Shown here piece after piece: positions 1 through 34,944 of a stretch of 35,743 nucleotides of DNA (positions are counted from its first letter, which is position 1; each line of letters begins with the position of its first letter). Source of the stretch: Thermoanaerobaculia bacterium (GTDB taxonomy: Bacteria; Acidobacteriota; Thermoanaerobaculia; Multivoradales; UBA5704); contig DASUNJ010000528.1 in the NCBI GenBank assembly GCA_036277235.1, forward strand, positions 1 through 35,743, written 5' to 3'. The notes under the pieces were generated by a model. That model worked only from the letters and a program-made list of their open reading frames with translations, was not told the origin of the DNA and ran no database searches. The position numbers were made by a program, and so were the translations under genes.

Positions 1-625
1 GCCGCGCCGCCGGCTCGCCGACCTTGGCAATCAGGTGGGCGCGCACGATCTCGAAGCTGTGGTTGAGACTCAGGTTGAGAGCCATCAGCTTGCCCCAGGC
101 CAGCGAATCGACGGGCGTCCACGGACGGGGCTCGATCCCGAGGATCGTGAGCTCGACCGGCAGCCGGCCGCGGTGGGCCGAGATGTAGGCGTTCACCCCG
201 TCGGCGTAGGCGGTGAGCAGGGCGCGGGTGGCAGGAGAGAGCGCCTGCCAGTCCCGCTCGGCGGCCTGCACGACGCCGAAGGTGCGCATGATCTTGTCGA
301 TTTCGAGGGCGCCTGCGCCGAAGACCGCGGAGAGCTCCCCGCGGCCGGCGTAGGCATTGAGCTGCATCTGCCAGAGCCGGTCCTGGGCGTGCACGTACCC
401 CTGGGCGAAGAAGAGGTCATGGGCGCTTTGCGCGTAGATGTGGGGGATGCCAGGCTCGACCCGCACGATCTCGACCGGCGCCTCGAGGCCGGGAACCGTG
501 AGGCGGCCTTCGACCTCAGGATAAGCGCGGCGCACGAGCCAGAAGAAGACCAGGCCGAGGATCACGATCAACCCCACCAGGACGACGGCAGTCCAGCGCA
601 GAAGCTTCCACAGGCGGGATTTCAT
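1..625 (-). CDS. Penicillin acylase / N-acyl-homoserine-lactone acylase family (Ntn hydrolase, PvdQ-like) protein. Only the N-terminal ~208 codons are present; the 3' end lies beyond the window start.
   Basis: Not in the ORF track because no stop codon falls in the window. My translation of the minus strand from the ATG at 625-623 gives MKSRLWKLLRWTAVVLVGLIVILGLVFFWLVRRAYPEVEGRLTVPGLEAPVEIVRVEPGIPHIYAQSAHDLFFAQGYVHAQDRLWQMQLNAYAGRGELSAVFG... It has an N-terminal hydrophobic signal/anchor followed by the GIPHIYA...DLFFAQGYVHAQDRLWQM block I recognise as typical of the penicillin-amidase (S45) family. The ATG overlaps the TGA of the upstream NRPS (ATGA at 622-625), which implies translational coupling. 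Confidence 0.8.
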   Translation of the reverse strand, partial: MKSRLWKLLRWTAVVLVGLIVILGLVFFWLVRRAYPEVEGRLTVPGLEAPVEIVRVEPGIPHIYAQSAHDLFFAQGYVHAQDRLWQMQLNAYAGRGELSAVFGAGALEIDKIMRTFGVVQAAERDWQALSPATRALLTAYADGVNAYISAHRGRLPVELTILGIEPRPWTPVDSLAWGKLMALNLSLNHSFEIVRAHLIAKVGEPAAR

Positions 626-3600: not shown

Positions 3601-6600
3601 GCGGCCGAGGTACTCGGTCTCGCCGTCCCGCCGGCAGCGCGCCAGGTCGCCGGTCCGGTACAGCCGGCCGCCCGGCTCGGCCGTGAAGGGATCGGGGACG
3701 AATCGCTCCGCCGTGAGGCCGGGGCGCCGGTGATAGCCCCGGGCGAGACCGCGGCCGGTGACGTACAGCTCCCCTGCGACTCCCAGGGGCACCGGCTCCC
3801 CATGCCCGTCCAGGATGTAGACCCGTGTGTTGTCGATCGGCCTGCCAAGGGCGGGGAGAGCCTCGCCCTGCCGCTCCGCCGGCGGCACCTCCGCTACGGT
3901 GGTCACCACGCTGTACTCCGAGGGGCCGTAGTGATTCATCAAGCGGAACGGCGCGCCGGCCGCGGGCCGCCGGTGCAGCCGGTCGCCACCGGTGATCAAA
4001 GCCCTGACGCGGAGATCGAGGCCGGGTGGGAGCGTCTCTACCAGGACCTCCTCGGCCAGGGGTGTCATCAGGAAGGTGAGGGTGATCCCCTGTTCGGCCC
4101 ACCAACGGACCGTCCGGACAGGAGAGAGCCGAGTCTCCTCGTCGGGGATGTGCAGGCTCGCTCCGGCCGCCAGGTAGGGCCAGAGCTCCCACACGGAAGC
4201 ATCGAACGCCGGGCTGGCGACCAGGGTGGCTCGATCCTCGGGGACCACTCCATAGAGGCTCTGGTGCCAGCGCACCAGGTTCATCAGGCCGGCGTGCGGG
4301 ATCTCGACGGCCTTGGGCAGTCCGGTCGAACCGGAGGTGTAGATCATGTAGGCCAGGTTGCCGGGGAGCAGCGCCGGGACCGTCAAGTCCCCGGTCGCTG
4401 CTTCAAGATTCCCCTCGTCCTCGTGCGGGAACAGGCAATGGATCCCCCGCTGTGCGGCATGATCGGCCGCGGGTCCGCGGTGCGCGAGGAGCACCGTCAC
4501 TTGCGCATCCTCCAACTGGTACGCCAGCCGCTCCGCGGGATGAGCGGGATCGAGGGGCACGAAGGCGCCGCCGGCCTTGAGCGCGGCGAGGGCTGCAATG
4601 GCGAGCTCCGGGGAGCGCTGGAGACAGATGCCAACCCGGACCTCCGGTCCGCAGCCCAGGGCGCGCAGGGCATGGGCGAGCCGGACCGCCCGCCGGTCGA
4701 GCTCGCTGTAGCTCAGCCTCCGCCCGCCGGCGGCCACCGCCAGCGCCTCCGGTGCCCGCCGGGCGTGCTCCGACACGAGCTCGTGGACGAACAGCCCGGA
4801 CGCGGGCCATGCACGGCGGTCGTTCCACTCCCGTACCAACTGGTGCCGTTCCGCCGCGGAGAACAGGTCGATCTCCGGCAGGGGGACGTCCGGGCGGGCG
4901 GCCACCGAGGTGAGCAGGTGGGTGAAGTGAGCGGCCCAACGCTCCACCGTGGAGCGATCGAACAGGTCGGTGCGGAATTCGAAATCGGCGACCAGCGTGT
5001 CGCCCCGGAGATCGAGCCCGAGCGTCAGATCGAATTTGGCCGTATGGTTCTCGACCGGCAGGGGGGTGTACGACAGCCCCGGTGCCAGCTCGCGGGCGGT
5101 CTCATCCACGCCGAGGACGAAGGAGACCTGGAAAAGCGGGCTGCGGGCCAGGCTGCGCTCCGGCTGCAGCTCCTCGACCAGGCGCTCGAAAGGCACGTCC
5201 TGGTGCGCGTAGGCGGCGAGCGCGGTCTCTCTCACGCGGGAGATCAGGGCGCTGAAGGCTGGGGCGCCGGCGAGGTCCACGCGCAGGACCAGGGTGTTGA
5301 CGAAGAAGCCGGCGAGCCCTTCGCTCTCGGCGCGTCCGCGGCCGGCGACCGGCGAGCCGAGCAGGAGGTCCTTCTCGCCCGTGATCCGCTCCAGCAGGGC
5401 CGCGAACCCCGAGAGCAGGACCATGAACAGCGTCGCCCCCTGGTGCTGGGAGAGGGCGCGGACCCCGGCCGTCACGGCCGCCGGCAGCGAGGTCAGGAAA
5501 TGGGCGCCGCGCGAGGTCTCGACCGGCGGGCGCGGCCGGTCGGTCGGCAGGTCGAGGGCCTCGGGAGCGCCGGCGAGCTGCTGGCGCCAGTATGCGAGCT
5601 GCTCTTCCAAGACGGGACCGTCGAGCCAGCGCCGCTGCCAGGCGGCGAAGTCGGCGTACTGGGTCGCCGGCTCCTGCAGAGGCGACGGCAGGCCGGCCGC
5701 GAAGGCCTGGTAGAGGGCGGACAGCTCGCCCAGGAGGAGGTTGATCGACCAGCCGTCCCCGGCGACGTGGTGCACCGTCATCAGAAGGTGGTGCGCCTCG
5801 GCTCCGAGGGTCAGCAGCCGGGCGCGGAAGAGCGGACCCGTCGCGAGGTCGAACGGGCTCGCGGCGTCCTCGTCGGCCAGCCTGCCGGCCTCCGCCTCTC
5901 CGGCTTGCGGAGGGAGGGTGGAGAGGTCGATCCGGGGGAGGAAGAAGCCGCCCGGCGGCGCGACGGTCAACCGCGGCTCTCCGCTCTCCGCATCCACCGC
6001 GAAGGTGGTGCGCAGGACCTCGTGCCGGCGCTCCACCTCGCCCAGGGCGCGCTCCAGGAAGGCCGCGGCAAGGGGGCCGCGGATCAAGCGGGGGAACGGC
6101 AGGTTGTAGACCGGCGAGCCGGGTTCGAGGCGGTCGAGGAGCCAGAGCCGCTGCTGGGCGAAGGAGAGGGGACGGTTCTCCCGGTCCGCCAGGGGCTCGA
6201 TCGGGGCCGGCGGAAGGGCCTCCGCAGGCAGGTGCCCCAGGGCCGAAAGGGCCGCCGCCAGGGCCGAGACGGTCGGCGCGGCGAAGAGCGTGCGCAGAGG
6301 CACCTCGATGCCGAGCGCCACCCGTATCCTCGACACCACCCGAGTAGCGAGAAGGGAGTGGCCGCCCAGCTCGAAGAAGTTGTCGTGCGGGCCGGGCAGC
6401 TCGTCGCGCCTCAGTACCTCGGCCCAGATGCCGGCGAGGAGCTCCACGAAAGGCGCGGCGGCGCCCAGGGGTATCGCCGACGTGGCCGATGCGGGGGGCT
6501 CCGCCGGTCCGCTTTCGGGGACGGGCAGGGCCTTGCGGTCCACCTTCCCGTTGGGCGTCAGCGGCATTGCGTCGAGCAGGGTGAAGGAGGACGGCACCAT

Positions 6601-9600
6601 GAACTCGGCGAGCCGGACGCGCAGGTGCTCGCACAGCTCGCCGGGCGTCGGGGCCGGCTGGCCGGCGGGCACGACGTAGGCCGCGAGAAAGCGGTCGCCG
6701 CCCGGCTCGCCGCGCGCCACCACCACCGCCTCGCGCACTTGCGGGTGCGCCTCCAGGGCGGTCTCGATTTCCCCCAGCTCGATCCGGAAGCCGCGCACCT
6801 TCACCTGATTGTCGAGCCGGCCCATGTACTCGATCCGGCCGTCGGGGAGAAGGCGCCCGAGGTCGCCGGTGCGATACAGGCGGGCTCCCGGCTCCAGGGG
6901 GTCCGGCACGAAGCGCTCGGCCGTCAGCTCGGGCCGGCCGAGATAACCCCGCGCCAGGCCGGCGCCGCCCAGGTAGATCTCCCCCGGCACCCCGACGGGC
7001 ACCAGCTCCAGGTGCCGGTCGAGCAGGCGAGCCCAGGTGCCGGCGATCGGCCGCCCGATCGTCGGCTCGCGCCGGCTCCCGCGCTCCACGGTCTCGAAGG
7101 TCGAGTAGGTGGTGTCCTCCGAAGGGCCGTACAGGTTCCGCACCCGTTCGGCGCCGATCGCATAGAGGGCCTGGGCCAGGGAGCCCTTGAGCGGCTCGCC
7201 CGCCAGGTTCACCGTCCGCACCCTGTCCGGGAGCGTCTGCACCAGCTCCAGCAGGGCGGAGACCGCCGAGGGCACGGAGTTGATCAGGGTGACCTCCCCG
7301 GCCGCGGGCAGCTCCGGCAGCTCCAGGACGTTGCCGGCGAGGACCACCTGCCCCCCGCACGCCAGGGGCACGAACAGCTCGAAGACCGAGAGGTCGAAGG
7401 AGATCGAGGTCGAGGCCAGGACCGCCGCCAGCTCCGCCGGGGTGAACACCTCGTGCGCCCAATGGATGAAGGCCACGGCGCTGCGGTGCTCGATCGCCAC
7501 CGCCTTGGGACGGCCGGTCGAGCCCGAGGTGTAGATCAGATAGGCGAGGTTGCCGGGGAGGGCCAGGATGGGCTCAGCTTCCTCCTCCATCCTGTCCGGC
7601 TCGCCGTCGAGCACCAGCACCCGCGCCCGTGAGGTTGGCAGGCGCGAAGCGAGGGCCGTCTCGGTGATCAGGACGGCGGCGTCGGCGTCCTCCAGCATGA
7701 ATCCCAGCCGCTCGCGCGGGTAGTTGGGGTCGAGCGGCACATAGGCGCCGCCGGATTTGAGGATGCCCAGGAGGGAGACCACGAGAGACGGCGACCGTGA
7801 CAGGCAGACTCCGACCCGGACCTCCGGCCCGACCCCGAGCGCGGCCAGTCTCCGGGCCAGCTCGCCGGCGCGCAGGTCCAGATCCCGGTAGGTGAGCCGC
7901 TCGCGGCCGGCGACCAGGGCGGTCGCCTCGGGCGTGCGCGCGGCCTGGGCGGCCACGAGGTCGTGCATGCACGCTGCTATTGGAGCCAGCGGAGCCGGCG
8001 GACCCGGCTCGTGCCACTCTCCGCGGATCTGCCAGCTCTCCCCGGCCCCCAGAAGCGGCAGTCGGGACACCGGCCTCCCGGTTCCCTCCGCCACCAGGCT
8101 GGACAGCAGGGCGAGGAAGGAGCGCCCGAGCCGTGCCACCGTGGGCGCGTCGAAAAGGTCGGTCGAGTACTCCAGGAGAGCGGTCAGGCTCTCCCCCTGG
8201 CCATTGACGAAGAGCGAGAGGTCGAACTTGGACGTTCCGGTGTCGATGCGCAGCAGGTCGCAGTTCAGGCCCTGGGCGAGCTCGCCGTCTTGCAGGGGAT
8301 CGAGCGAGAACATCACCTGGAAGAGCGGGCTTCGCGACAGGTCGCGCGCCGGCTGCAGCTCCTCGACCAGGCGCTCGAAGGGAAGCTCCTGATGGGCGTA
8401 GGCCGCGAGCGCCGACTCGCGCACCTGGGCCGCGAGGGCGCGGAAGGGCGGGTCGCCCGCCAGGTCGGCGCGCAAAGCGAGGGTGTTGACGAAGAAGCCG
8501 AGCAGGCCTTCGCTTCCCGCCTCCCTGCGGTTGGCGACCGGCGAGCCCACCACCAGGTCCGTCTGGCCGCTGAAGCGGCCGAGGAGCGCGTAGAAGGCCG
8601 CCAGGGTGGTCATGAACAGGGTCGAGCCTTCGCTCCGGGCGAGGCTGCGCAGCCCGGCGGCGAGCTCGGCCGGGAAGGCGAGCGGAAGCACGGCGCCGCG
8701 GAAGCTCTGCACCGGCGGCCGCAGCCGGTCGGCCGGCAGCTCGAGGGCGGCGGGCGCTCCGGCCAGGCGCTGCCGCCAGTAGGCGAGCTGCGCCGCCATG
8801 AATTCCTCGGACAGCCGGTACCGCTGCCAGACGGCAAGGTCGGCGTACTGGACCGCCAGCTCGGGGAGAGGCGACGGCCGCCCGGCGCGGAAGGCGCCAT
8901 AGAGCGCGCCCAGCTCGCGCCGCAGGACGCTGACCGACCAGCCGTCGAAGGCGGCGTGGTGGCAGGAGAAGACCAGCAGGTGCTCCTGCTCGTCCAGCTG
9001 CAGGAGGGCGGCCCGCGCCACGGGGCCGCGGACGAGGTCGAACGGGCGTCGCGCCTCCCGCGCGATCTGCCGGTCCGCCTCGGCTGCGGCGGTCGCGGAG
9101 GGCAGGCCGGAGAGGTCGACCCGGGGCAGCCCGGGGGCGTGAAACGGCGCCACGACCTGGAGCGGCTCATCATCCTGCCCCTCGGCGAAAGTGGTGCGCA
9201 GGACCTCGTGCCTCCGGAAGACCTCGTCCAGGCTGCGCTCGAGGAGCCCCAGGTCGAGCGGGCCGGTGAGGCGGAACGCCAGGGGCAGGTTGTAGACCGG
9301 CGAGACCGGATCCAGGCGGTGGAGGAACCAGAGCCGTTCCTGGCCGAAGGAGAGGGGCAGCGCCCGGTCCCGCGGGACCGGCACCAGCGGAGCCGGCTCG
9401 GGGCCGCCGGCCACGGCGAGCCGCGCTTCCTTGATGCGCCGCGCCAGCGCAGACAGGATGCGGGTCTCGAAGGCGGCCCGCACCGGGAGATCCACCCCGA
9501 AGGCGGAGCGCACCCGCGCCAGCACCTGGCCGACGAGCAGCGAGTGCCCGCCGAGATCGAAGAAATCGTCGCCGGTGCCGATCTCCGTCCGGCCGAGGAC

Positions 9601-12600
9601 CTCACCCCAGATCCCAGCCAGCAGCTCCTCGGCCGGGGTGCTGGGGACCGCGGAGTCCACCGGGCCGGTCGCCGCCGCCGGCTCCTCCGCGGTGGGCGGA
9701 GGGAGGGCGCGCCGGTCGACCTTGCCGCCCGGGGTCAGCGGCAGGGCCGGCAGGAAAGTGAAGAAGGAGGGGACCATGTGCTCGGGGAGCCGCGCGCGCA
9801 GGAAGGCGCGGAGCTCCTGGACCGAGGGTGCGGCCGGTCCAGCCACGTAGGCGGCGAGCCGGAGGTCCTGGGGCGTGGCCTCGTAAGGCACGACGACGGC
9901 CTCGCGCACGCCCGGATGGTCGAGGATCTGCGCCTCGACCTCCCCCGGCTCGATGCGGAAGCCGCGCACCTTGACCTGCCGGTCGGCGCGGCCGAGGAAT
10001 TCGAGCTGGCCGTCGGGCCGGAAGCGGGCGAGGTCCCCGGTGCGATAGAGGCGCTGGCCGGCAACTTCGCCCGTGGAGCCCGTGGGATCGGGGACGAAGG
10101 CGGCGGCCGTGAGGTCGGGCCTGCCGAGGTAGCCGCGGGCGAGCCCCCTGCCGCCGATGTGGAGCTCCCCGGGGACCCCCTGGGGGACGACCTCGCCGTG
10201 CGGTCCGAGCACCAGGAGACGGCTGTCGGCGACCGGCCGTCCTATCGGGGTCTGGCCGTCCTCGCCGAGCCGCGCCATGGAAACGCAGATGCTCGCCTCG
10301 GTCGGCCCGTAGGCGTTCCACAGCCGGCGCCCGGCGGCCCAGCGGGTCACCAGGGCGGGGGGGAAGGCCTCTCCTCCCACCACAAGTCCGCGCAGGCCGG
10401 AGAGCTCCTGGCTCGCCTCCTCCGGCATCGCCGCGAGCGCGCTCGGCGTGAGGAAGACGTTGGTGATGCCGCGCCGGAGCAGGGTGGTGAGCAGGGCCTG
10501 CCCGGGGAGGAGGTCCTCGGCGCGGGCGAAGACGAGGGTCGCGCCGCGGACCAGCGTGCTCCAGATTTCCCACACCGAGGCGTCGAAGCTCGCGGAGGCG
10601 AACTGCAGCACGCGGCTCCCCGGTTCCACCCCCGAGCGCTCGGCGAGCGCCTCGACCGCCCAGAGGAATCCGCGGTGCTGGATGAGCACCCCCTTGGGGC
10701 GGCCGGTCGAGCCCGAGGTGTAGATGACGTAGGCGAGATCCTCGGGAGCTGCTTCCTCCAGAGGCTCTTCCAGAGGAAACGGGAACGCCACGATCTTCGC
10801 TTCGAGCGGCACGAGCTCGGCCTCTCCCGTCGGCAGGGTGGCGGCGAGGGCGGTCCGCGCGAGGAGCACCGGAACGCGGGCGTCCTCCAGGGTCCGGGCG
10901 AGCCGCTCGGCGGGATGGGCCGGATCGAGCGGCAGGAACGCTCCGCCGGCCATGAGCACGGCGAGCATGCCGACCAGCGTCTCCGGCGAGCGCTCGGCAT
11001 AGACGCCGACCCGCACGTCGAGCCCCACGCCGCGGGAGCGCAGGTGGCGGGCGAGCCGCCGCGCCCGCTGCACCAGCTCGCGGTAGGTCAGCCCGCGCGC
11101 TCCGGGATCGGCCGGCAGCACCGCCATCGCTTCGGGAGTCGCGTCCGCCCAAGCCGCGATGCGCGCCGGCACCGAGCCGTCCCAGGCCGGCGGGCTGGGG
11201 GAGCGGCTCCATTCGACGAGGAGCGCGTGGCTCTCCGCCGCGCCGACCAGGGCGAGGTCCGAGAGCGGCGCCTCCGGCCGCGCCAGGGCGTCGGCGAGGA
11301 GCGCCAGCCAGCCCCGCGCCATCCGGCCGGCGGTCGCCGAGGTGAAGAGGTCGGCGCTGGCGACCAGCCGTCCGGCGATCTCCTCCCCCTTCTCCTCCAG
11401 GTCGAGGAGGAGATCGAACTGCGCCGCGCCGTGATCTTCCTCACTCCAGGCCAGGGTCAGCCCGGGCGCCAGCTCCCGCGGACCGGCGTTGCCGCGATAG
11501 GCGAAGAAGGCCTGGAAGAGCGGGTCCGCGCTGGAGGCCCGTTGGGGCCGCAGCACCTCGGCCAGGGTTTCGAGCGGCAGGTCCTGGTGAGCGAAGACGC
11601 CGAGCGCCCGGCCACGCACGGTGGCGAGCAGGTCGCCGAAAGCGGGATCGCCGGGGCGCTCGACCCGCAGCGGGAGGGTGTTGGCGAAATAGCCGATCAT
11701 CCCCTCCAGCTCGGGCCGGCCGCGATGGGCGAACACCGTGCCGACGACGAGGTCGTCCTGCCCCGTGATCCGGCGGAGCAGCGCCACCCAGGCGGCGAGG
11801 AGGACCATGTACCTCGTCGCACCACGCCGCCGGGCAAACTCGCGCACTTCGCGGGAGATGGCGGGAGGGATATCCAGCGTCCGGCTCACCCCGCGCCAGC
11901 TCCGCGCCGCCGGCCGCGCCTGGCCGGCCGGCAGGTCCGCTGGCAGGTAAAGCCCCCTCGGAGTCCCCTCGAGATGCTCCCGGAAGAAGGCGGCGTGGGG
12001 AGCCAGAACCTCCGCGCTCAGCTCTTCGCGCTCCCAGGCGGCAACGTCCGCCGGCTGCACCGCAGGCGGCGGGAGCGGCGACGGCCTCCCCTGGAGGAAG
12101 GCGGGGTAGAGCGCCTCCAGCTCGCGCTCGAACACCAGGATCGAGGAGCCGTCGGCGATGACGTGGTGGAGGGTGAGGAGCAGGTCGTGCCCGGTTTCCT
12201 CCGCGCGGAGCAGGCTGAGACGCCAGAGCGCGCCCCGATCGGGATCGAGCGGCTGGCGGGCCTCCGCCCGCGCCAGCCGCTCGCGCTCAGCCGACCGCCG
12301 CAGGAGAGGGAGCCCGGAGAGGTCGACGAGCGGCAACCGTACGGGCGACGGGTGGGCGACGAGCTGGAGCGGCTCACCGTCCGGGCCGGGCTCGATCGTG
12401 GTCCGCAGGGCCTGGTGGCGGGCGGCGATCTCCGTCAGGCAGCGTTCGAGGACGGCGGGCGCCAGGGGACCCTCCAGCCGCATCACCACCGGAATGTTGT
12501 TCACCGGCACCCCTGGGACGAGCCGTTCGACGAACCAGAGCTGCCGCTGCGCCGAGGAGAGCGGCTCGCCCCCGGGATCCCGCGGCCGCGGTTGGATCGG

Positions 12601-14364
12601 CGCGAGGCGCGATGGCTGCGACGGCCGATCGGCGAGAGCGCGCTCCACCTGCTCCGCCAGGGCGGCGACGGTGCTCGCCTCGAACACCGCCGAGGGCGGC
12701 AGGCCGACTTCGAGCGCCGCCTGCACCCGCGCCTGGATCTGGGCTGCGAGCAGCGAATCGCCGCCCAGGTCGAGGAAGCTCTCGTCGATCCCCACCCGCC
12801 CGCGCCCGAGCGTTTCTTCCCAGATTCCGGCCAACAGCTCCTCGGTCGGATTGCGCGGAGCCTGCGCGTCCCCGTCGGCGCTTCCCATCGGCCCCGGCGG
12901 GAGCGCGCGCTGGGCGAGGGCCTGGCGATCCACCTTGCGGTTGGGGGTCAAGGGGAGCGCGGGGAGCTCCAGGAAGAGGGCCGGTACCATGTGCGCGGGC
13001 AGCCGCGAGCGCAGGAAGGCCCGCAGCCCGGCGCCGGAGGCCTCTCCCACAAACCAGGCCACCAGGCGCTTCTCGCCCGTGCCGTCTCCCCGCGCCACCA
13101 CCACCGCCTCGCGCACGCCTGGATGGGCGGCGAGGGCCACCTCGATCTCCCCCAGCTCGACGCGAAAGCCGCGCACCTTCACCTGGTGGTCGAGCCGGCC
13201 CAGGTATTCGATCCGGCCGTCGGGCAGGGCGCGCCCGACGTCGCCGGTGCGGTAAAGGCGCGCGCCGGGCGTCTCCGCCCCCGGGTCGGGCACGAAGCGC
13301 TCCGCCGTCAGCTCGGGCCGGCCGAGGTAGCCGCGGGCCAGGCCGGCGCCGCCGAGGCAGATCTCCCCGTCGAGGAGACGGACCCAGGTGCCGGCGACCG
13401 GCTTGCCGATGGTCGGCTCGCGCGGGCTCCCGCGCTCCACCACCTCGAAGGTCGAGTAGGTCGTGTCCTCCGACGGGCCGTAGAGGTTCAGCACCCGCTC
13501 CACCTGCTCGGCACCGGTCGCGTAGACCGCCTGGGCCAGGGAGCCCTTGAGCGGCTCACCCGCGAGATTGACCGTCCGCACCCCGGCCGGGAGGGTCCCG
13601 GCGCGCACCAGCTCGGTCATGGCCGAAGGGACGGTATTGACCAGGGTGACCTCCCCGGCCGCCGGGAGCTGGGGCAGCTCCAGGACGTCGCGGGCGAGGA
13701 CCACCCGGCCGCCGCAGGCCAGGGGCACGAACAGCTCGAAGATCGAGAGGTCGAAGGAGATCGAGGTCGAGGCCAGGACCGCCGCCAGCTCCGCCGGGGT
13801 GAACACCTCGTGCGCCCAATGGACGAAGGCCACGGCGCTGCGGTGCTCGATCGCCACGGCCTTGGGGCGGCCGGTGGAGCCCGAGGTGTAGATCAGGTAG
13901 GCGAGGTTGCCGGAGAGGGCGCGGACGGGCTCAGCTTCCTCCTCCGTCTCATCCGGCTCGGCATCGAGCAGCAGCACCCGCGCGTTGGAAGCAGGCAGGA
14001 GCGCGGCGAGAGCCGGCTCGGTGACCAGGACCGCGATGCCGGCGTCCTCCAGCATGTAGCCGAGGCGCTCCTGCGGATAGTCGGGATCGAGCGGCACGTA
14101 GGCGCCGCCCGCTTCGAGGATGCCCAGGAGGGTCGTCACCAGCGCCGGCGACCGGCGCAGAAAGACCCCGACCCGCACCTCCGGCCCGACGCCGAGCGCG
14201 GCCAGCCGCCGGGCCAGCCGGCCGGCTTCGAGGGCCACCTCGCGATAGGTGAGGCGTCTGTCGCCGGCCACCAGGGCCACGGCCGCCGGGGTCCGCGCGG
14301 TCTGAGCGGCCACGAGATCGTGCAGGCACGCCGCCGCCTCCCGGGCGTCAGGCCGGCTGGGCAA
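622..14364 (-). CDS. Non-ribosomal peptide synthetase with four modules plus an extra terminal C domain and a thioesterase: A-T-C-A-T-C-A-T-C-A-T-C-TE
   Basis: 4580-codon ORF. Motifs read from the translation:
- Four A domains: [60 protein letters not shown]; GFR(I/V)E(L/P)GE(I/V)E; (G/R)KVDR or GKLDH.
- Four carrier domains: LGGDSL, LGGHSL, LGGHSL, LGGYSL.
- Four C domains: [36 protein letters not shown].
- C-terminal thioesterase: GGWSLGG ... GDH.
Module length leaves no room for E or MT domains. The putative TTG start at 14364 is preceded by GAGAGGA and overlaps the upstream stop by 17 nt; the exact start codon is uncertain. By-eye Stachelhaus positions for A1 and A3 give D-L-F-N-N-A-L-T-Y-K, which I recall as an Ala code (tentative). 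A4 looks Leu-like (DAW..G.VVK) and A2 looks hydrophobic or aromatic (very tentative). Confidence 0.97.
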   Translation of the reverse strand: [4580 protein letters not shown]

Positions 14365-17300
14365 CGGAATCCTCTCGCAATTCGCAGGCGGCCCGCTCGC
14401 GCTCGATCTGCTCCATCAGGAGATCCTCTACCGTCATGGCGAGGTCGGCCACGGTGGTGTGCTCGATCAGGTCGAGCAGGGGAACCTCGACGTCGAAGTC
14501 CCTCTGCAACCGGCTCATCACCTGCGGCAGGAGCAGGGAGTGGCCGCCCAGCTCGAAGAAATCGTCGTTCGCCCCCACCCGGTCGACGCCGAGAACCTCG
14601 CACCAGATCGCCGCCACCCCCTCCTCGGCCGGCGAGGCGGGGGCCTCGTACTCGGCGGCGAGAGCCGGACGGGAAGCGTCCGGGGCGGGGAGGGCCCGGC
14701 GGTCGACCTTGCCGCTGCCGTTGATCGGCAGGGCGGGAAGGGTCAGGTAGAGGGCGGGCACCATGTGGTCGGGGAGGCGCTCCTTGAGGAAGGGGCGCAG
14801 GTCGCCGACCTCCGTTTCCCGGCCCGAGTGGGGCACGGCGTAGGCCACCAGGCGCAGCTCGCCCGGCCGGTCCTCGCGCGCCACGACCGCGACCTCGCGC
14901 AGCGCGGGGTGCAGCGCCAGCGCGGCCTCGATCTCTCCCAGCTCCACCCGGAAGCCGCGGATCTTCACCTGGCGGTCGGTGCGGCCCAGGAACTCCAGAT
15001 CGCCGGAAGGGAGCCAGCGCACCAGGTCGCCGGTGCGATAGAGGCGCGCGCCGGAAACGCCCGCCGCCGCGGCCCAGGGATCGGGGAGAAAGCGCTCGGC
15101 GGTCAGGTCGGGGCGGCCCAGATAGCCGCGCGCCACGCCCGCTCCACCCAGGCAGAGCTCGCCGGGCACGCCGACCGGCACCGGCTCCTGCCGCAGGTCG
15201 AGGACGTAGGCCCGGTAGCCTGCGAACGGCCGCCCGAGGGGCGCCTCGCGCATGCCGTCCGTGGAGCCGAGCCAGGGCGCGAGGTCGCCGATCGTGGCTC
15301 CGATGGTGCACTCGGTCGGGCCGTAGGTGTTCCACAAGTGCACCCGCGTGCCGAGATGCCGGCGCCAGGCCTCCAGCCGCTCCGGCAGGGGCCGCTCGCC
15401 GCCGATGATGACCCGCCGCAGGGCGGGGGGCCAGTCGATGTCCTCCGTCAGATCGGCCGCCAGCACGTGCCAGTAGGCGGTGGGCAGGGTGAGGAGGGTG
15501 ATCCCCCGCGCCCGGCAGGCGGCGAGGAAGTCGGCGCTCGACCGCATCATCGCGTCGCTGCGCAGCACCAGCGTGCCGCCCGTGGACAGGACCGGGTAGA
15601 TCTCCTCGGCGCTGTTGTCGAAGCTGATCGAGGCGAACTGCAGGACGCGGTCGGCGGGGCCGATGGCGTACTCCAGGCAATCGCCCGCGATGTAGCTCGC
15701 GAGCGATCCGTGCGACACCATCACGCCCTTGGGCTTGCCCGTCGAGCCGGAGGTGTAGATGACGTAGGCGAGCCTCTCGAAGTCGGGATCATCCGCCAGC
15801 GGGCCGTCGGGGCAGGCGGCGATCCGGTCGCGGTCCGCTTCCAGGCAGACGACGCGCACGCCGGAGAGCGCCTCCTCGCCGAAGGCGCCGAGCAGGCGCT
15901 GCTCGGTGACCAGGACCGGGACTCCGGAGTCGGCCACCAGGAAATCCAGGCGCTCGCGGGGGAGGGCGGGATCCATCGGCACGTAGGCGCCGCCCGCCTT
16001 GAGGATGGCGAAGAGGGCGGCGATCATCGCGGGCGAGCGCTCGAGGCTGAGGGCCACCGGCATCTCCGGCCTCACCCCCAGACGGCGCAGGTGGTGGGCG
16101 AGCCGGTTGGCCCGGCGGTCGAGCTCCTCGTAGGTGATCTCCTGCTCGCCCTGCTCTCCCGCCACCAGGGCCACGGCGCCGGGGGTCGTCCGGGCCTGCC
16201 GCGCGAAGGCGAGGTGGACCGGAAGCTCCGGGGTGACGGACTTTTCCGTCGACCACGAGAGCACCTGCGCGGCCGCCGCCGGGTCGGCGAGCGGCAGCTC
16301 GTCCAGGGTGCGTTCGGGCGCCGCGGCCACGCCGCCGAGCAGGACCTCGAGCTGGCCGAGCAGGCGCTCGATCGTCGCCTCCTCGAACAGCCGGGCGTTG
16401 TAGATCATGAGCGCCGCGATCCCTTCGTCTCCCGGCTCCAGGACCAGGCAGAGGTCGAAGATCTCCGTCGCCAGCTGGCTGTTGAGGCCGGCGCGCGAGG
16501 CCCGCAGGGTGAGGCCGGAGAACTCCAGCTGCGGCTCCGGCAGGTTCTGGACCTGGAACATCACCGAGAAGGGTTGCTGCCCGTGGCCCGGGTTCGTGGC
16601 CTGGAGCACGGTTTCGAGCGGCAGGTCCTGGTGGGCGTAGGCGCCGTTCGCCACCTCCCGCACCTGGCCCAGGAGCTCGCGGAACTCGCGGTCGCCAGCG
16701 GCCTGCGTGCGCAGCACCAGGGTGTTGAGGAAGAAACCGATCAGCCCTTCGATCTCGCTGTGGGTGCGGTTGGCGATGGGGACGCCGACCAGCAGGTCCT
16801 CTTCCCCGCTGTAGCGGTAGAGCAGGGTCTTCCAGGCGGCGAGAAGGAGCATGAAGAGAGTCGCCCCCTCGCGGTCGGCGAGGGCCTTGAGGTCCGCGGC
16901 GAGGGCGGCGGGCAGGAGGCGGGTGGCCCCGCCGGCGAGGAATCCCTGTCCGGACGACCGCGGCCGGTCGGTCGGGAGACGCAGGGGCGGCGGCGCTCCG
17001 GCGAGCTGCCCGCGCCAGTAGCCGAGCTCGTTCTCCAGCGTCGCGCCCTGGAGGTGCTCGCGCTGCCAGGCGGTGAAGTCGGCGTACTGGATGGGGAGCT
17101 CGGGCAGCGGCGAGGGGCGGCCGGCCGCGAACGCCTGGTAGAGGGCGGCGATCTCGCGCACCAGCACCACCCACGACCAGCCGTCGCCGATGGTGTGGTG
17201 CATGTTGAACAGGCCCACGTGCTCCCGCGGCCCGGCGACGAGCAGCGTCGCGCGGAAGATCGGCCCGCGCGCCAGATCGAACGGGCGATTGTGCGCCGCC

Positions 17301-20300
17301 GCCTCCAGCCGTGCCATTTCCGCCTGGCGCGCCGCGGCGGGCAACCCCGCCAGGTCGACGACGGGGAAGGGGAAGGGGGCGGGCGGCAGGATGCGCTGCT
17401 GCGGCATCCCCATCTCGGCCACGAACACGGTGCGCAGCGCTTCGTGGCGGCGCACGAGCTCGTCCAGGCAGCGGCCGAGGACCGGGATCGAGAGCGGGCC
17501 GCTCACTTCGACGCGGTTGAACAGGTTGTAGATCGGGGTCCCCGGGTCGAGCTGGTCGAGGAACCACATCCGCTCCTGGGAGAAGGAGAGCGGCGCGCGG
17601 TCCGCGGCCCCGTCCCGCCGCGGGATCCGTTGGCGGGGCTCCTCGTCGGCTGTTCCAGGAATCGCCCCGCTGGCGAGGGTCTCCCTGACGACCGTGGCCG
17701 CCTGGGCCAGCGTGACCGCCCCGAGGAGCGGCTGGAGCGGCAGCTCGGCCCGGAAGGTGTCGCGCAGCCGCGAGGCGACCTGGGTGGCGAGCAGCGAGTG
17801 GCCGCCCAACTCGTAGAAGTTGTCGTCCGCCCCCACTTCGGCCACGCCCAGCACGTCCTGCCAGACGTAGGCGATCTCCCGCTCATAGAGGTCGCGGGGA
17901 GCGACGTAACCGGTGCGCAGGGCGGGCCTTGCCTTGCGCGCAGGGGCCGCCGGCTGGCTGGTTGAGACGACCGCGGTGGCCCCGGGCGCATCGATCCAGT
18001 GGCGCCGGCGCTCGAAGGGATAGGTCGGCAGCGGCACCCGGCGGCGCCCCTGGCCGGCGTAGAAGCCCTGCCAGTCGATGCGCGCGCCGGAGACCCAGAG
18101 GCGGCCGAGCGCGCCGAGCAGGGCCGCCAGGTCGGAGCTGGTGTCCTTGGGCTGGCGCATGGCGGCGGCGACCGGGCGCTCTCCGGGGGAGGCCAGGTGC
18201 CAGCGGATCAGAGGGGAAAGGCCGGCGCCGGGGCCGACCTCCAGGAGGGCCATGCCGGGCTCGGCGCGCAGCGCCTCGACCCCGTCCGAGAAGCGCACCG
18301 GCTGGCGCATGTGGCGCGCCCAGTAGCCGGGATCGGTGACCTCCCCGGCGCCGATCCAGGTGCCGGTGGTGCTCGACACGAAGGGGATCTCGGGGGCCTT
18401 GGGCCCGACCGCCGCGACCCGCTCCTGGAAGGGCGCCATGGCCGGCTCGGTGCGCGGCGAATGGCCGGCGAAGGCGACCTGGAGGGGCATGGCGGCCACT
18501 CCCTCGCCGGCGAGGCGGGACGCAAGCTCCGCGAGCTCCGCGGCCGGGCCGGCGATGCTCACCAGCGAGGGCGCGTTGAGCGCCGCAAGATGGACCTCGC
18601 CGCTCAGGAAGGGGGTGATCTCCGACTCGGAGAGCGGCACTGCAAGCATGGTGCCCTCGCTGCCGATCTGCTCGATCAGGCGCCCGCGCTCGGCCACGAG
18701 CTCCAGGGCGGCCTCGAAGGAGAAGACGCCCGCCAGGACGGCCGCCGCGTATTCGCCGAGGCTGTGGCCGAGCATGGCCTTCGGCCGCACGCCCCAGGAG
18801 AGGAGCAGGCGCGCCAGGGCGACCTCGACGGCGAGCAGGGCCGGCTGGGCCACGGAGGTCCGCGCCAGATGGCTCGCGGCCTCGGCTTCGGCCTCGGCGT
18901 TGGCAGCCGGGTAGAGGACGTCGTGGCGCAGGTCGAGCCCCAGGCGCGGAGCGAGCAGGGCCGCGGCGCGGTCGATCTCGTCCCGGAAAGCCGGCTCGGA
19001 CTCGTACAGGTCGCGGCCCATGTTGACGTGCTGGGCCCCCTGGCCGGGGAAGACGAAAGCGACCGGCCGGCCGGACTCCGGCCAGTCCTCGGAGGTTCCG
19101 GTCAGGAGCCGCACCGGGTCGCCCGCGGCGAGGCAGGCCGCGGCGTCCCCCGGGTCGCGGGAGACCAGGGCCTGGCGGGCGCCGAAAGCCTGGCGGCCGG
19201 CGGCCAGGGTGTACGCGGCATCGGCCAGATCGAGCTCCGGTCGGTCGGCCAGGTGACTTGCCAGCCGCTCGCCAGCCGCCGCCAGGGCTTCCGGAGTGCG
19301 GGCCGAGAGGGTCAGGAGCTGCCAGGGCCGGGTGCGGAGAGCCGGCTGAGGGGCCGGGGCCTCTTCGAGGACGACATGGGCATTGGTGCCGCCGAGCCCG
19401 AAGGAGTTCACCCCGGCGCGGCGCGGCGCGTCCCCGGCCTGGTTGGGCCAGGGGGCGAGCGCGGTGTTGACGTAGACCGGGGAGGACGCGAAGTCGATCC
19501 GCGGGTTCGGCTGCTCGTAATGGAGGCTGGGCGGGACCTCGCCGTGCTCCACGGCGAGCACGGTCTTGATCAGCCCGGCCACGCCGGCCGCCACGTCCAG
19601 GTGGCCGACGTTGCTCTTCAGCGAGCCGATGGCGCAGAAGCCCCGGCGGTCGGTGTACTCGCCGAAGGCCCGGGTCACCGCCCGGATCTCGATCGGATCG
19701 CCGAGGGCCGTGCCGGTGCCATGGGCCTCGAGGTAGCCGATCGTCGTCGGATCGACCCCGGACATGGCCAGGGCCTCGCTGATCACCGCCGCCTGCCCCT
19801 CGACTCCCGGGGCCGTGAAGCCGACCTTCACGCTGCCGTCGTTGGTGACCGCCGAGCCCAGGATGACGGCGCGGACCGTGTCGCGGTCGGCGAGCGCATC
19901 CTCCAGGCGCTTGAGGACGACGAGCCCGACGCCGGAGCCGAAGATGCTCCCCTGGGCCGCGGCGTCGAAGGCCCGGCAGTGCCCGTCCGGCGAGACCACC
20001 GACCCCGGCACGTAGCGGTAGCCGAGACCGGCGTTCGCCTGGATCGAGACGCCGCCGGCCAGGGCGAGGTCGCACTCCTCGTTGAGCAGGGACTGGCAGG
20101 CGGTGTGAACGGCGACCAGAGAGGTCGAGCAGGCGCACTGCACGCTGTGGCTCGGCCCGCGCAGGTTGAGCTTGTAGGAGATCCGGGTGGCGAGCGCATC
20201 CGAGGCGTTGCCCAGGACCACCTGCAGAGGATCGGCGCCCGCGGTCAGCGGATTGCCGATCAGGTGGAAGAGGAGATAGGTCGAGAGCGTGGCCCCGGCG

Positions 20301-20680
20301 TAGACCCCGGCCCGTCCGGCGATGCCCTGGGGATCGTAGCCGGCGCTCTCCAGGGCCTCCCAGGCGCATTCGAGGAGCACCCGGTGCTGCGGGTCCATGA
20401 GCTCCGCCTCGCGCGGGTTGAAGCCGAAGAAGAGGTCGTCGAAGGTGTCGTAGCCGTCCATCTGGGAGGCGGCCTTGACCCAGTCCGGATCGGCGAGGCG
20501 CGCCGGGTCGAGGCCGCGCGCCGCGAGCTCCCCGGCGCCGGGGAAGGTTACCGCCTCGACCCCGTCGCGCAGGTTGCGCCAGAGCTCCTCGACGTCGCGG
20601 GCGCCGGGAAACCGCCCGGCCATCCCCACGATGGCGATCTCGGTTCCGGTGAGCCCGCGCGGTGTGTCGTTCTTCGCCAT
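14348..20680 (-). CDS. Hybrid PKS-NRPS: KS-AT-carrier-C-A-T
   Basis: 2110-codon ORF with an ATG start 7 nt downstream of the preceding gene's TAA.
- KS: IAIVGMAGRFPG, VQCACSTSL (Cys present), EAHGTGT, SNVGHL.
- AT: FVFPGQGAQ, GHSLGE; the specificity motif reads FAGH.
- PCP-like carrier: YELGGHSL.
- C domain: MHHTIGDGWS.
- A domain: LAYVIYTSGSTGKPK, SFDNS, NTYGPTE, VKIRGFRVELGEIE, GSGKVDR.
- T domain: FELGGHSL.
There are no reductive domains. Confidence 0.97.
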   Translation of the reverse strand: MAKNDTPRGLTGTEIAIVGMAGRFPGARDVEELWRNLRDGVEAVTFPGAGELAARGLDPARLADPDWVKAASQMDGYDTFDDLFFGFNPREAELMDPQHRVLLECAWEALESAGYDPQGIAGRAGVYAGATLSTYLLFHLIGNPLTAGADPLQVVLGNASDALATRISYKLNLRGPSHSVQCACSTSLVAVHTACQSLLNEECDLALAGGVSIQANAGLGYRYVPGSVVSPDGHCRAFDAAAQGSIFGSGVGLVVLKRLEDALADRDTVRAVILGSAVTNDGSVKVGFTAPGVEGQAAVISEALAMSGVDPTTIGYLEAHGTGTALGDPIEIRAVTRAFGEYTDRRGFCAIGSLKSNVGHLDVAAGVAGLIKTVLAVEHGEVPPSLHYEQPNPRIDFASSPVYVNTALAPWPNQAGDAPRRAGVNSFGLGGTNAHVVLEEAPAPQPALRTRPWQLLTLSARTPEALAAAGERLASHLADRPELDLADAAYTLAAGRQAFGARQALVSRDPGDAAACLAAGDPVRLLTGTSEDWPESGRPVAFVFPGQGAQHVNMGRDLYESEPAFRDEIDRAAALLAPRLGLDLRHDVLYPAANAEAEAEAASHLARTSVAQPALLAVEVALARLLLSWGVRPKAMLGHSLGEYAAAVLAGVFSFEAALELVAERGRLIEQIGSEGTMLAVPLSESEITPFLSGEVHLAALNAPSLVSIAGPAAELAELASRLAGEGVAAMPLQVAFAGHSPRTEPAMAPFQERVAAVGPKAPEIPFVSSTTGTWIGAGEVTDPGYWARHMRQPVRFSDGVEALRAEPGMALLEVGPGAGLSPLIRWHLASPGERPVAAAMRQPKDTSSDLAALLGALGRLWVSGARIDWQGFYAGQGRRRVPLPTYPFERRRHWIDAPGATAVVSTSQPAAPARKARPALRTGYVAPRDLYEREIAYVWQDVLGVAEVGADDNFYELGGHSLLATQVASRLRDTFRAELPLQPLLGAVTLAQAATVVRETLASGAIPGTADEEPRQRIPRRDGAADRAPLSFSQERMWFLDQLDPGTPIYNLFNRVEVSGPLSIPVLGRCLDELVRRHEALRTVFVAEMGMPQQRILPPAPFPFPVVDLAGLPAAARQAEMARLEAAAHNRPFDLARGPIFRATLLVAGPREHVGLFNMHHTIGDGWSWVVLVREIAALYQAFAAGRPSPLPELPIQYADFTAWQREHLQGATLENELGYWRGQLAGAPPPLRLPTDRPRSSGQGFLAGGATRLLPAALAADLKALADREGATLFMLLLAAWKTLLYRYSGEEDLLVGVPIANRTHSEIEGLIGFFLNTLVLRTQAAGDREFRELLGQVREVANGAYAHQDLPLETVLQATNPGHGQQPFSVMFQVQNLPEPQLEFSGLTLRASRAGLNSQLATEIFDLCLVLEPGDEGIAALMIYNARLFEEATIERLLGQLEVLLGGVAAAPERTLDELPLADPAAAAQVLSWSTEKSVTPELPVHLAFARQARTTPGAVALVAGEQGEQEITYEELDRRANRLAHHLRRLGVRPEMPVALSLERSPAMIAALFAILKAGGAYVPMDPALPRERLDFLVADSGVPVLVTEQRLLGAFGEEALSGVRVVCLEADRDRIAACPDGPLADDPDFERLAYVIYTSGSTGKPKGVMVSHGSLASYIAGDCLEYAIGPADRVLQFASISFDNSAEEIYPVLSTGGTLVLRSDAMMRSSADFLAACRARGITLLTLPTAYWHVLAADLTEDIDWPPALRRVIIGGERPLPERLEAWRRHLGTRVHLWNTYGPTECTIGATIGDLAPWLGSTDGMREAPLGRPFAGYRAYVLDLRQEPVPVGVPGELCLGGAGVARGYLGRPDLTAERFLPDPWAAAAGVSGARLYRTGDLVRWLPSGDLEFLGRTDRQVKIRGFRVELGEIEAALALHPALREVAVVAREDRPGELRLVAYAVPHSGRETEVGDLRPFLKERLPDHMVPALYLTLPALPINGSGKVDRRALPAPDASRPALAAEYEAPASPAEEGVAAIWCEVLGVDRVGANDDFFELGGHSLLLPQVMSRLQRDFDVEVPLLDLIEHTTVADLAMTVEDLLMEQIERERAACELREDSVAQPA

Positions 20681-23205: not shown

Positions 23206-23655
23206 CTAGTCCGCGGCGCTCGTCACGAGCACCTCGCCATATCGCCGCTGCGCGATCCCCTTGCCGCGGTGGACCAGGACGGCTTCGATGTACTCAGGCC
23301 TGAACCAGTCCTTGATGAATTTCTCCACGTCGGTCCGGTCGAAGTCCTTGCAGGAGTAGACGTCGATGCTGATGAAGCGGTTGTTGGCCGAGGTATGGAT
23401 CTGGATGCCGCTCTCGATGATCGGAACCCAGCCGCTGTAGCCCGGCTTGCCCGGGAACGTCGTTTCGCAAGTCTTGAAAATGTAGGGTTGCGTCTGCTTG
23501 GTCATCTTGAGGTGCACGCAGATCTTATCAAGGAACTCATACCCCTTGTCGAGATCGCAACAGACGTCGGGGGCACAGCCAAAGCAATCGATGATCAGTT
23601 GGAATCCCCAGGCGTCGTCGAGCTTGGTCTGGGAACTCAGTTGCAGGTTCGACAT
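23206..23655 (-). CDS. S-adenosylmethionine decarboxylase-fold (SpeD/SpeH-like) pyruvoyl-dependent decarboxylase proenzyme homologue; substrate unknown
   Basis: The track ORF (23206..23775) starts at a GTG with no RBS. The in-frame ATG at 23655 is preceded by AAGGGAGGA with a 3-nt spacer (ATC), giving a 149-aa product typical of the family. The translation matches the small bacterial AdoMetDC consensus as I remember it:
- WGFQLIIDCFGC....L.D
- GYSGWVPIIESGIQIHT, containing the Glu-Ser self-cleavage site and the His five residues later
- ISIDVYSCKDFD, the catalytic Cys
- VLVHRG. Confidence 0.8.
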   Translation of the reverse strand: MSNLQLSSQTKLDDAWGFQLIIDCFGCAPDVCCDLDKGYEFLDKICVHLKMTKQTQPYIFKTCETTFPGKPGYSGWVPIIESGIQIHTSANNRFISIDVYSCKDFDRTDVEKFIKDWFRPEYIEAVLVHRGKGIAQRRYGEVLVTSAAD

Positions 23656-23782
23656 GATTCCTCCCTTTGATGGCGGATAGTGCAAATAAGAGTCAACCCC
23701 ACCGGACCTCTCGCTGGATTCGCGAGGCCCGGGCCCATCCTTACTAAGTGCTTTGACACAGGGCAGAAGGGACACATGCGCA

Positions 23783-33628
<9,846 letters not shown>

Positions 33629-34921: not shown

Positions 34922-34944
34922 CGGAGAGAGGAACCGGAACAGGG

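Follow-up and report, generated by a model that had tools for sequence, protein, structure and literature searches.

The speD-like gene and its operon

The stretch of DNA considered here (the window, 35,743 nucleotides of contig DASUNJ010000528.1, assembly GCA_036277235.1, from a Thermoanaerobaculia bacterium of the Acidobacteriota) carries an operon of megasynthase genes combining a fatty acyl-AMP ligase (FAAL), nonribosomal peptide synthetase (NRPS) and polyketide synthase (PKS) domains, in which a small speD-like gene is embedded, named after the gene for S-adenosylmethionine decarboxylase (AdoMetDC). As the DNA has a GC content of 72% and unfiltered calling picked antisense open reading frames (ORFs), calls were filtered by the GC content at third codon positions (GC3) and complemented by tblastn probes. 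All genes from position 33628 down to the window start were found on the minus strand (Table 1). The location of the speD-like gene inside a secondary-metabolite operon, as proposed in an initial annotation of this stretch, was borne out: megasynthase genes lie on both sides and on the same strand, and the gene is kept in four related loci (L013, L014, L015 and L001; related loci carry L numbers throughout). In a further locus, L003, it is kept in another position, ahead of the first megasynthase. The gaps on either side of the gene comprise 127 and 103 nt; no terminator-like site was found on the minus strand within these gaps and no promoter-like site near the gene, and an Rfam scan of the window returned no match. 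The speD-like gene is probably co-transcribed with the FAAL-NRPS-PKS lipopeptide operon.

The gene starts with the ATG at 23655 and ends with the stop codon at 23208-23206. Its mechanically called ORF reaches upstream to a GTG at 23775; the ATG was preferred as start because all homologues begin at this ATG. The plus-strand translation of the same interval is free of stops, yet shows none of the motifs described, whereas the 149-residue minus-strand product contains PIIES82GIQIH87T and DVYSC102K. The product length, the His at +5 and the Cys within DVYSCK were thus correctly read in the initial annotation, with the strand now specified as minus. Its placement of the cleavage site behind the Ser has to be revised, as the bond cleaved in this family is Glu81-Ser82, whereby Ser82 becomes the pyruvoyl group.

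Table 1. Features of the window (positions counted from its first letter).
Feature	Position	Strand	Basis
speD-like gene, class-1b AdoMetDC-fold pyruvoyl proenzyme, 149 aa	23206..23655	-	translation, Pfam PF02675, AlphaFold2/Foldseek, 217 homologues, dN/dS
Predicted beta chain (residues 1-81) and predicted alpha chain (residues 82-149, 68 residues)	within 23206..23655	-	sequence
Ribosome-binding site GGGAGG, 4 nt 5' of the ATG	23660..23665	-	read from sequence
Glu81-Ser82 codons, predicted self-cleavage site (Ser82 to pyruvoyl)	23410..23415	-	invariant 74/74; equivalent to T. maritima S63
His87 codon (Ser+5), processing/catalytic residue	23395..23397	-	invariant 74/74; equivalent to T. maritima H68
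Cys102 codon (Ser+20), catalytic residue	23350..23352	-	invariant 74/74; equivalent to T. maritima C83
Cys-rich N-terminal segment (C24, C27, C32, C33, C46, C63)	23467..23586	-	conservation counts
Megasynthase 1, 3281 aa: FAAL-ACP-C-A-T-KS-AT-KR-ACP	23783..33628	-	Pfam, motifs
CBM9_1 + DUF5916 protein, 804 aa	20688..23102	-	Pfam
Megasynthase 2, 2110 aa: KS-AT-ACP-C-A-T	14348..20680	-	Pfam, motifs
Megasynthase 3, 4580 aa: 4x(C-A-T)-TE (thioesterase)	622..14364	-	Pfam, motifs
Penicillin-amidase (Ntn-hydrolase) gene, N-terminal 208 aa, cut by window end	2..625	-	Pfam PF01804, 2.6e-60
Partial hybrid histidine kinase (HATPase_c + receiver domain), upstream edge of window	34945-35736	-

Fold and catalytic residues of the proenzyme

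The Pfam family AdoMet_dc (PF02675) was matched at 57.3 bits (cut-off 25) over profile positions 2-107 of 107, so that the family assignment of the initial annotation holds across the whole domain. An AlphaFold2 model of the protein was built on 26 homologues (mean pLDDT, predicted local distance difference test, 71.8), and its top five Foldseek matches in the PDB were AdoMetDC protomers of Thermotoga maritima and Aquifex (1VR7/2III), with TM-scores of 0.83-0.85 when normalised to the target and 0.67-0.70 when normalised to the query, at a root-mean-square deviation of about 2 Å. Among the 74 full-length copies of the family no variation occurs at E81, S82, H87, C102, S74 and Asp23, with S74 presumably being the helper Ser equivalent to S55 of T. 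maritima. The spacing of the Ser, the His at +5 and the Cys at +20 is identical to that of S63, H68 and C83 in the T. maritima enzyme, which were identified as processing and catalytic residues (PMC10407285). By fold, motifs and conservation the gene product is a class-1b AdoMetDC-fold pyruvoyl proenzyme, for which self-cleavage and decarboxylase activity are predicted; the initial assumption of a probably active pyruvoyl enzyme is consistent with its intact processing and catalytic residues.

The speD-like gene is under strong purifying selection, with dN/dS values of 0.08-0.35 against 12 relatives. The Cys-rich N-terminal half, described initially as unusual, is present and conserved across the family and hence no quirk of the window copy: C24 and C32 occur in 74 of 74 full-length copies, C27 and C63 in 73, C33 in 71 and C46 in 65. 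Two of these N-terminal Cys are found already in the nearest outgroup clade, hence the Cys-rich segment is partly ancestral.

Relation to AdoMet, ornithine and arginine decarboxylases

Against TIGR03330, the NCBIfam equivalog of AdoMetDC, the window protein scored 39.8 bits and thereby remained below the cut-off of 75.65. BLASTP gave 27-37 bits to canonical class-1b enzymes and 64-74 bits to a clade with the MTKITQPYVF motif, which comprises the SpeDA-type protein of Vampirovibrio chlorellavorus and Omnitrophica relatives. The HTWPE motif of AdoMetDCs is replaced by HTSANN (S89, A90, N91). Li et al. (PMC10407285) reported a Pro that bona fide AdoMetDCs possess without exception and that their arginine decarboxylase derivatives have lost, whereby equating it with the Pro of HTWPE is an interpretation of the text on Fig. 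8 of that work. A tblastn search with a SpeE probe, confined to the loci themselves, matched neither the window nor any of the 74 related loci, in agreement with the initial remark that no spermidine synthase lies beside the gene. Because its score lies below the TIGR03330 cut-off, HTSANN takes the place of HTWPE and speE is missing from the 75 loci, the window protein is probably not an AdoMet decarboxylase. As a consequence, the supply of decarboxy-SAM (decarboxylated S-adenosylmethionine), one of the roles considered initially, became unlikely.

An exhaustive phmmer search of 1.84 billion representative proteins identified only four proteins below 1e-30, followed by a tier at 41-47% identity, which shares FPDKxGLSGWVPLxESGIxIHT...F.S.D.YSC with the window protein. 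Proteins of this type also form the C-terminal domain of two-domain proteins (P0253, P0263), the N-terminal half of which is a canonical SpeD. In SpeD-SpeDC fusions the N-terminal domain was identified as AdoMetDC and the C-terminal domain as ornithine decarboxylase (ODC; Li, Liang, Phillips, Michael, JBC 2023, PMC10407285). From this fusion architecture we infer a probable ODC-like ancestry of the window family. The closest relatives are hence placed on the ornithine/arginine-decarboxylase side and not on the AdoMet side, in keeping with the initial reference to AdoMetDC homologues repurposed as ornithine or arginine decarboxylases. With a profile of the 41-47% tier over 2,300 proteins were obtained, of which the small named fraction stems from DPANN archaea and Omnitrophota; compared with this clade and with a second neighbouring one of over 7,600 members, the window family is small at about 217 clusters. 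It departs from the ODC-like clade in three respects: Gly69 stands at the Asp position of FPDK, HTSANN takes the place of HTLSxK, and extra Cys are conserved. The first two changes occur in all of its members.

Gln54, Thr88, Phe94 and Tyr100 are invariant in the family. Four residues of the central region (Gln, Thr, Phe and Tyr) were described as diagnostic of SpeDC in the text on Fig. 8 of PMC10407285, and the four invariant residues, matched to them by residue type and not by the positions drawn in the figure, may be this diagnostic set. Gln54, Phe94 and Tyr100 differ from the aligned SpeDA-type and canonical sequences, while Thr88 is common to the canonical ones. The aligned V. chlorellavorus protein is encoded beside canonical speD, speE and speB, an arrangement that was reported for the characterised arginine decarboxylase SpeD2 of V. 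chlorellavorus; judged by this gene arrangement it is probably SpeD2, in a strain variant. A protein 99% identical to V. chlorellavorus WP_303673511 is encoded in L076 (GenBank MW495066, 'Microcystis phage MaAM05'), within a block annotated speH_2-speH_1-speE-speB (2516-5294); the block may be bacterial DNA within the phage record.

Genomic contexts of the family

At 90% identity 217 homologue clusters were obtained, the named members of which come from metagenome-assembled genomes of Acidobacteriota only. One genome per GTDB species was scanned with the peptide patterns MTKQTQPY and GYEFLD[KQ]I, a scan that divergent members elsewhere would escape; it yielded 62 species loci, one per assembly and all from Acidobacteriota (Thermoanaerobaculia, Holophagales or unclassified). 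Neighbouring genes were counted in these 62 loci by tblastn with probe proteins of known Pfam content. A gene combining Cupin_2 with a part resembling methionyl-tRNA synthetase (MetRS) is located directly upstream on the same strand in 37 loci and within 4 kb in 40; a Lys/Orn N-hydroxylase gene lies within 6 kb in 32, a DAO-family oxidase gene within 3 kb in 27, and NRPS domains occur anywhere in the locus in 20. At least one gene for a hydrazine synthetase, N-hydroxylase, DAO, NRPS or kinase was found in 55 of the 62.

The best PDB match of the cupin-MetRS protein is the hydrazine synthetase PyrN-C (9L8V, 9VQ4) with 126 bits, a true MetRS reaching 52 bits. The N-hydroxylase matched the Lys N6-monooxygenase MbtG with 360 bits and the Orn monooxygenase PvdA with 302, followed by the diamine hydroxylases DfoA (135) and FbsI (113). 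For the DAO, PDB sequences gave a weak glycine-oxidase match only. A Lys N6-hydroxylase, a cupin-MetRS synthetase and a DAO-like oxidase constitute the hydrazine-forming set Spb38/Spb40/Spb39 (PMC11705231). In L053, NRPS, MacB, DAO, speD-like, hydrazine synthetase and N-hydroxylase genes are found all together, and in L012 the order is IscS-MnmA-hydroxylase-synthetase-speD-like-DAO. Five loci (L017, L019, L028, L042 and L043) possess an intact speD-like copy beside IscS/MnmA with the cassette genes absent, which we read as repeated loss of the cassette with the decarboxylase kept; less probably, the cassette genes were relocated within these genomes. Some family copies adjoin housekeeping genes, namely IscS/MnmA, purA or the thr operon. 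In L056 the speD-like gene has an arginase-family gene (PF00491, 6.8e-60; 10535-11311, minus strand) as its neighbour, and a weaker arginase-family match was noted in L063 (about 14149-14958); no DAO gene was seen in either locus.

A neighbour-joining (NJ) tree, rooted on a SpeDA-like outgroup and assessed with 40 bootstrap replicates, has hydrazine-synthetase-linked loci on all of its deep branches. Three further context types were distinguished: the window type, with FAAL-NRPS-PKS and DUF5916 genes (window, L001, L002, L013, L014, L015); the P450 type, the same cluster with the speD-like gene ahead of megasynthase 1 (L003-L006); and the kinase type, in which the speD-like gene follows a protein-kinase gene, sometimes with radical-SAM genes like those for ribosomally synthesised and post-translationally modified peptides (RiPPs; L007, L018, L039, L073). 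Together they make up a single derived clade (bootstrap 36/40), from which hydrazine-synthetase, N-hydroxylase and DAO genes are missing. A group with DAO, MacB and NRPS genes is separate on the tree, its DAO sharing 55% identity with that of the cassette. The derived clade is set apart from the linked copies by a single alignment position (127, L versus F); this, the retention of the catalytic residues in all 74 full-length copies and the intact copies beside IscS/MnmA suggest that the same reaction is catalysed in all contexts.

Two close relatives, P0243 (56% identity; L079/L080, 8001-8453) and P0245 (284 aa; L081, 8001-8855), carry Gly for Ser82 and have lost Cys102, hence both are probably catalytically dead. 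P0243 follows an MFS and protein-kinase gene and lies beside radical-SAM/phosphodiesterase genes, while P0245 is a second copy on a 1.78-Mb contig that also carries the intact, hydrazine-synthetase-linked L045.

Neighbouring genes and megasynthases

The initial annotation had considered the supply of a free amine to a carrier-less terminal C domain; such a domain is absent, as the three synthases end in ACP, T and TE. In the A domain of megasynthase 1 (residues about 1350-1460), IAHASF replaces FDxS, so that Asp235 is missing, and NGYGLTE replaces NxYGPTE, which suggests a substrate other than a standard alpha-amino acid. A functional tie between the speD-like enzyme and this unusual His-for-Asp235 A domain was considered and rejected, as the variant is confined to the cluster type of the window (L003, L004, L013-L015) and absent from other NRPSs adjacent to family members. 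The A-domain code of megasynthase 2, roughly extracted by hand, reads D-N-E-L-I-G-T-I-G-K, with a Glu239 that may indicate a basic amino acid. In megasynthase 3, the same rough extraction gave DLFNNALTYK for modules 1 and 3, which we take to be an Ala code. A domains of the FDLSxFE/NLYGPSEDTTYS type, as in these two modules, recur in family-adjacent NRPSs of other loci.

The N-terminus of the DUF5916 protein resembles a signal peptide, as judged by eye; the protein is a conserved cluster partner in L001 and L013-L015 (77-87% identity in L013-L015), and its gene follows the megasynthase in L003. It may act in export, in uptake or at the outer membrane. Upstream of megasynthase 1 two minus-strand ORFs (33768-34406 and 34322-34948) encode Arg-rich products, are without coding-like GC3 and look spurious, while a plus-strand ORF (34421-34921) has a coding-like GC3 of 0.89 and no Pfam match. 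About 800 bp 5' of megasynthase 1 appear non-coding and may hold the operon promoter; the hybrid histidine kinase at the window edge may be a regulator of the cluster.

Beyond the amidase fragment the cluster can be followed in L082, a related locus from a metagenome scan with this fragment, the amidase of which is 84% identical. Hydrazine synthetase, N-hydroxylase and DAO genes were absent from the 10 kb beyond the amidase in L082. The region behind the amidase (12508-20623) encodes an MNT/HepT toxin-antitoxin pair, then an oppositely oriented MFS transporter, and further a P450, a sulfatase and a MacB-type permease, whereby the P450 is 83% identical to the one adjoining the speD-like gene in L003.

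Proposed function and its alternatives

Considering these data, it is suggested, with a probability of about 0.5, that the speD-like gene encodes a self-processing pyruvoyl amino-acid decarboxylase that serves specialised metabolism and not polyamine housekeeping. Fold, motifs, conservation, phylogenetic position and gene contexts are observed; the course that follows is inferred, from self-cleavage and decarboxylation to the class of substrate and the step at which the pathway draws on the enzyme. The proenzyme would cleave itself between Glu81 and Ser82, whereby Ser82 would be converted into the N-terminal pyruvoyl group of the alpha chain. A free alpha-amino acid would then be bound through its alpha-amino group to the pyruvoyl carbonyl as a Schiff base, CO2 would be lost, and Cys102 and His87 would complete the turnover. 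Ornithine, lysine or an omega-N-modified relative is most likely the substrate and a diamine-type building block the product, so that the enzyme would supply or tailor an amine for the lipopeptide. A role in specialised metabolism is supported by the NRPS-PKS cluster, which is arranged differently in the window type and the L003 type and retains the gene in both. Further support comes from the restriction of the 62 loci to Acidobacteriota, the low number of clusters (about 217), the 55 loci with hydrazine-synthetase, N-hydroxylase, DAO, NRPS or kinase genes and the lack of speE in 75 loci.

Owing to the descent from the SpeDC/SpeDA side of the family, the substrate is probably ornithine/lysine-like, and two models were considered. 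For the window, a generally available amino acid of the ornithine/lysine type (model a) was ranked before an omega-N-substituted one (model b), because copies survive without the cassette, the active site is unchanged in the window operon and an arginase-family gene adjoins the family gene in L056; under model a the enzyme would be a portable supplier of amines. Model b draws on the prevailing gene order and on the altered residues of the pocket, and it needs cassette genes elsewhere in the genome. A sequence of events in which the decarboxylase makes a diamine that is subsequently N-hydroxylated, as with DesA/DesB, was rejected as main model, the hydroxylase being nearer to MbtG/PvdA than to DfoA/FbsI.

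Several points weigh against a decarboxylase of this kind. The sequence alone gives no substrate, and the quality of the AlphaFold2 model is moderate (pLDDT 71.8, falling below 50 at residues 61-69). The ODC assignment of the nearest clade is anchored by fusion architecture and taxon names alone, and within the family Gly69 and HTSANN have probably shifted the specificity away from plain ornithine. The position between hydrazine synthetase and DAO in most genomes suggests a pathway intermediate as substrate, yet of these cassette genes, which dominate the surroundings of the family, none was found within 12 kb upstream or 23 kb downstream in the window. Moreover, hydrazines normally inactivate pyruvoyl enzymes, which makes a role beside hydrazine chemistry awkward.

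It is conceivable, although rather unlikely, that the enzyme acts on such a pathway intermediate and converts an omega-N-substituted lysine or ornithine into an amino-alkyl hydrazine, with the cassette genes of the window organism located elsewhere in the genome and feeding the NRPS-PKS. N6-(carboxyalkylamino)lysine would be a candidate substrate, as would N6-amino-lysine or N5-amino-ornithine left after Apy10-type cleavage. This cleavage leaves an omega-hydrazino alpha-amino acid, which resembles ornithine/arginine, and the exchange of Asp69 to Gly together with HTSANN would fit a new substrate. Further arguments are the frequent proximity of the cupin-MetRS (directly upstream), N-hydroxylase (6 kb) and DAO (3 kb) genes as counted above, the best matches of the first two to PyrN-C and MbtG, and the occurrence of the cassette in varied flanks, often with an NRPS, as in L053. 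These have to be set against the absence of cassette genes from the entire 35.7-kb window and the 10 kb past the L082 amidase, against a whole derived clade (36/40) that is without them in four different context types, and against the intact IscS/MnmA-flanked copies without cassette, which are interspersed among linked lineages on the NJ tree. In addition, free hydrazines are generally expected to trap the pyruvoyl group. A broader version, likewise held to be improbable and offered tentatively, describes the clade as an unrecognised fourth component of the cupin-MetRS cassette, an ODC descendant that would decarboxylate omega-N-substituted or omega-hydrazino Lys/Orn and would have been co-opted by the FAAL-NRPS-PKS pathway in the window.

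A housekeeping pyruvoyl ornithine (or arginine) decarboxylase for putrescine, the cluster position of which would be incidental, is distinctly unlikely. One copy per genome in 62 assemblies, strong purifying selection, copies beside the housekeeping genes named above, the adjoining arginase-family gene of L056 and the ODC-like nearest clade would all suit such an enzyme, but the distribution is narrow when compared with the clade sizes given above, and the ODC-like FPDK Asp and HTLSxK are changed in every member. Moreover, speE is missing from the 75 loci and agmatinase/arginase-family genes were found in L056 and L063 only, the probes having covered no other polyamine genes, while the recurrent linkage to hydrazine synthetase and the retention through NRPS-PKS rearrangement are hard to call incidental. 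That the protein is a bona fide AdoMetDC, giving decarboxy-SAM for aminopropylation of a metabolite, is very improbable: Pfam and database names do read AdoMet decarboxylase, and the phage phiN3 enzyme, which groups with ODC-type homologues and yet is a true AdoMetDC, documents that clade membership is no absolute proof, but the score lies under the equivalog cut-off, the Pro of HTWPE is missing together with its flanking Trp and Glu, and no aminopropyltransferase gene was found in the window or the 75 loci. Equally far from expectation is a role other than decarboxylation, with the pyruvoyl carbonyl or the Cys-rich half serving as hydrazine trap for self-protection, as regulator or scaffold, or in reductive C-N chemistry. 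Dead paralogues that were kept (P0243 beside a kinase, P0245 as second copy), the strong link of the family to hydrazine chemistry and six conserved Cys besides the catalytic one would be explained by it; against it, His87, Cys102, Ser74 and Asp23 are invariant in 74 copies and are needed for decarboxylation, not for a simple trap. We know of no precedent for such a role in the AdoMetDC fold.

Significance

To our knowledge, AdoMetDC-fold pyruvoyl enzymes have so far been linked to SAM, arginine or ornithine and always to polyamine synthesis. The present enzyme is of a known kind in a context that is undescribed in the literature searched, this search being a limited one, in which a pyruvoyl enzyme or decarboxylase linked to Spb38/40/39-type sets was likewise not found. 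The conserved branch recurs in hydrazine-synthetase cassettes, NRPS-PKS operons and kinase/RiPP-like loci. Provided that its activity can be confirmed, it would represent a new substrate or role for the AdoMetDC fold outside polyamine gene clusters, and a new accessory enzyme for natural-product pathways with N-N bonds in a phylum whose chemistry is almost unexplored. Should the family be a component of the hydrazine cassette, amino-alkyl hydrazines would be a new type of N-N building block. The initial annotation missed that the usual home of the family is the hydrazine-synthetase cassette and not the NRPS, and this link is the one most worth following up. The peptides MTKQTQPY and GYEFLD[KQ]I provide a genome-mining handle for such clusters in Acidobacteriota.

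Comparison with known systems

With the AdoMetDCs of T. maritima (TM0655, 1TLU/1VR7) and Aquifex (2III) the window protein has the fold, the Glu-Ser site, the His at +5 and the Cys at +20 in common; it differs from them in an identity of only ~20%, the lack of HTWPE, the change of GxH to GxQ and the lack of a speE partner. For SpeDA, exemplified by SpeD2 of V. chlorellavorus (PMC10407285), the aligned V. chlorellavorus protein encoded with canonical speD, speE and speB shares 32.5% identity (70 bits) with the window protein. Both SpeDA and the window family possess MTK.TQPY.F and FSCK.FD and are without the HTWPE Pro, whereas ES-Gly, FPGKPG and Phe94/Tyr100 of the window family correspond to ES-His, PEDKG and a Tyr/Phe pair in SpeDA. 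Unlike the window family, SpeDA is located in polyamine clusters.

SpeDC (PMC10407285) has in common with the window protein the class-1b fold, the Ser/His/Cys triad with its spacing and the motifs FP.K.G.SGWVP..ESGI.IHT and F.S.D.YSC, and the identity to single-domain members of the fusion-C-terminal clade is 41-47%. The putative SpeDC clade has the FPDK Asp and HTLSxK, as opposed to Gly69, HTSANN and the extra Cys of the window family. A clustering of the SpeDC type with polyamine genes was not found in the window, and speE is missing from the 75 loci, with CASDH/CASDC and HSS not having been probed directly. The window family, with its predicted activity, adjoins instead a hydrazine synthetase, NRPS-PKS or kinase gene and has so far been found in Acidobacteriota only. 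Unlike cassettes of the Spb38/Spb40/Spb39 type, the window is without hydroxylase, synthetase and DAO; in the family at large, the gene is usually located within this set, in the order hydroxylase, synthetase, speD-like gene and DAO.

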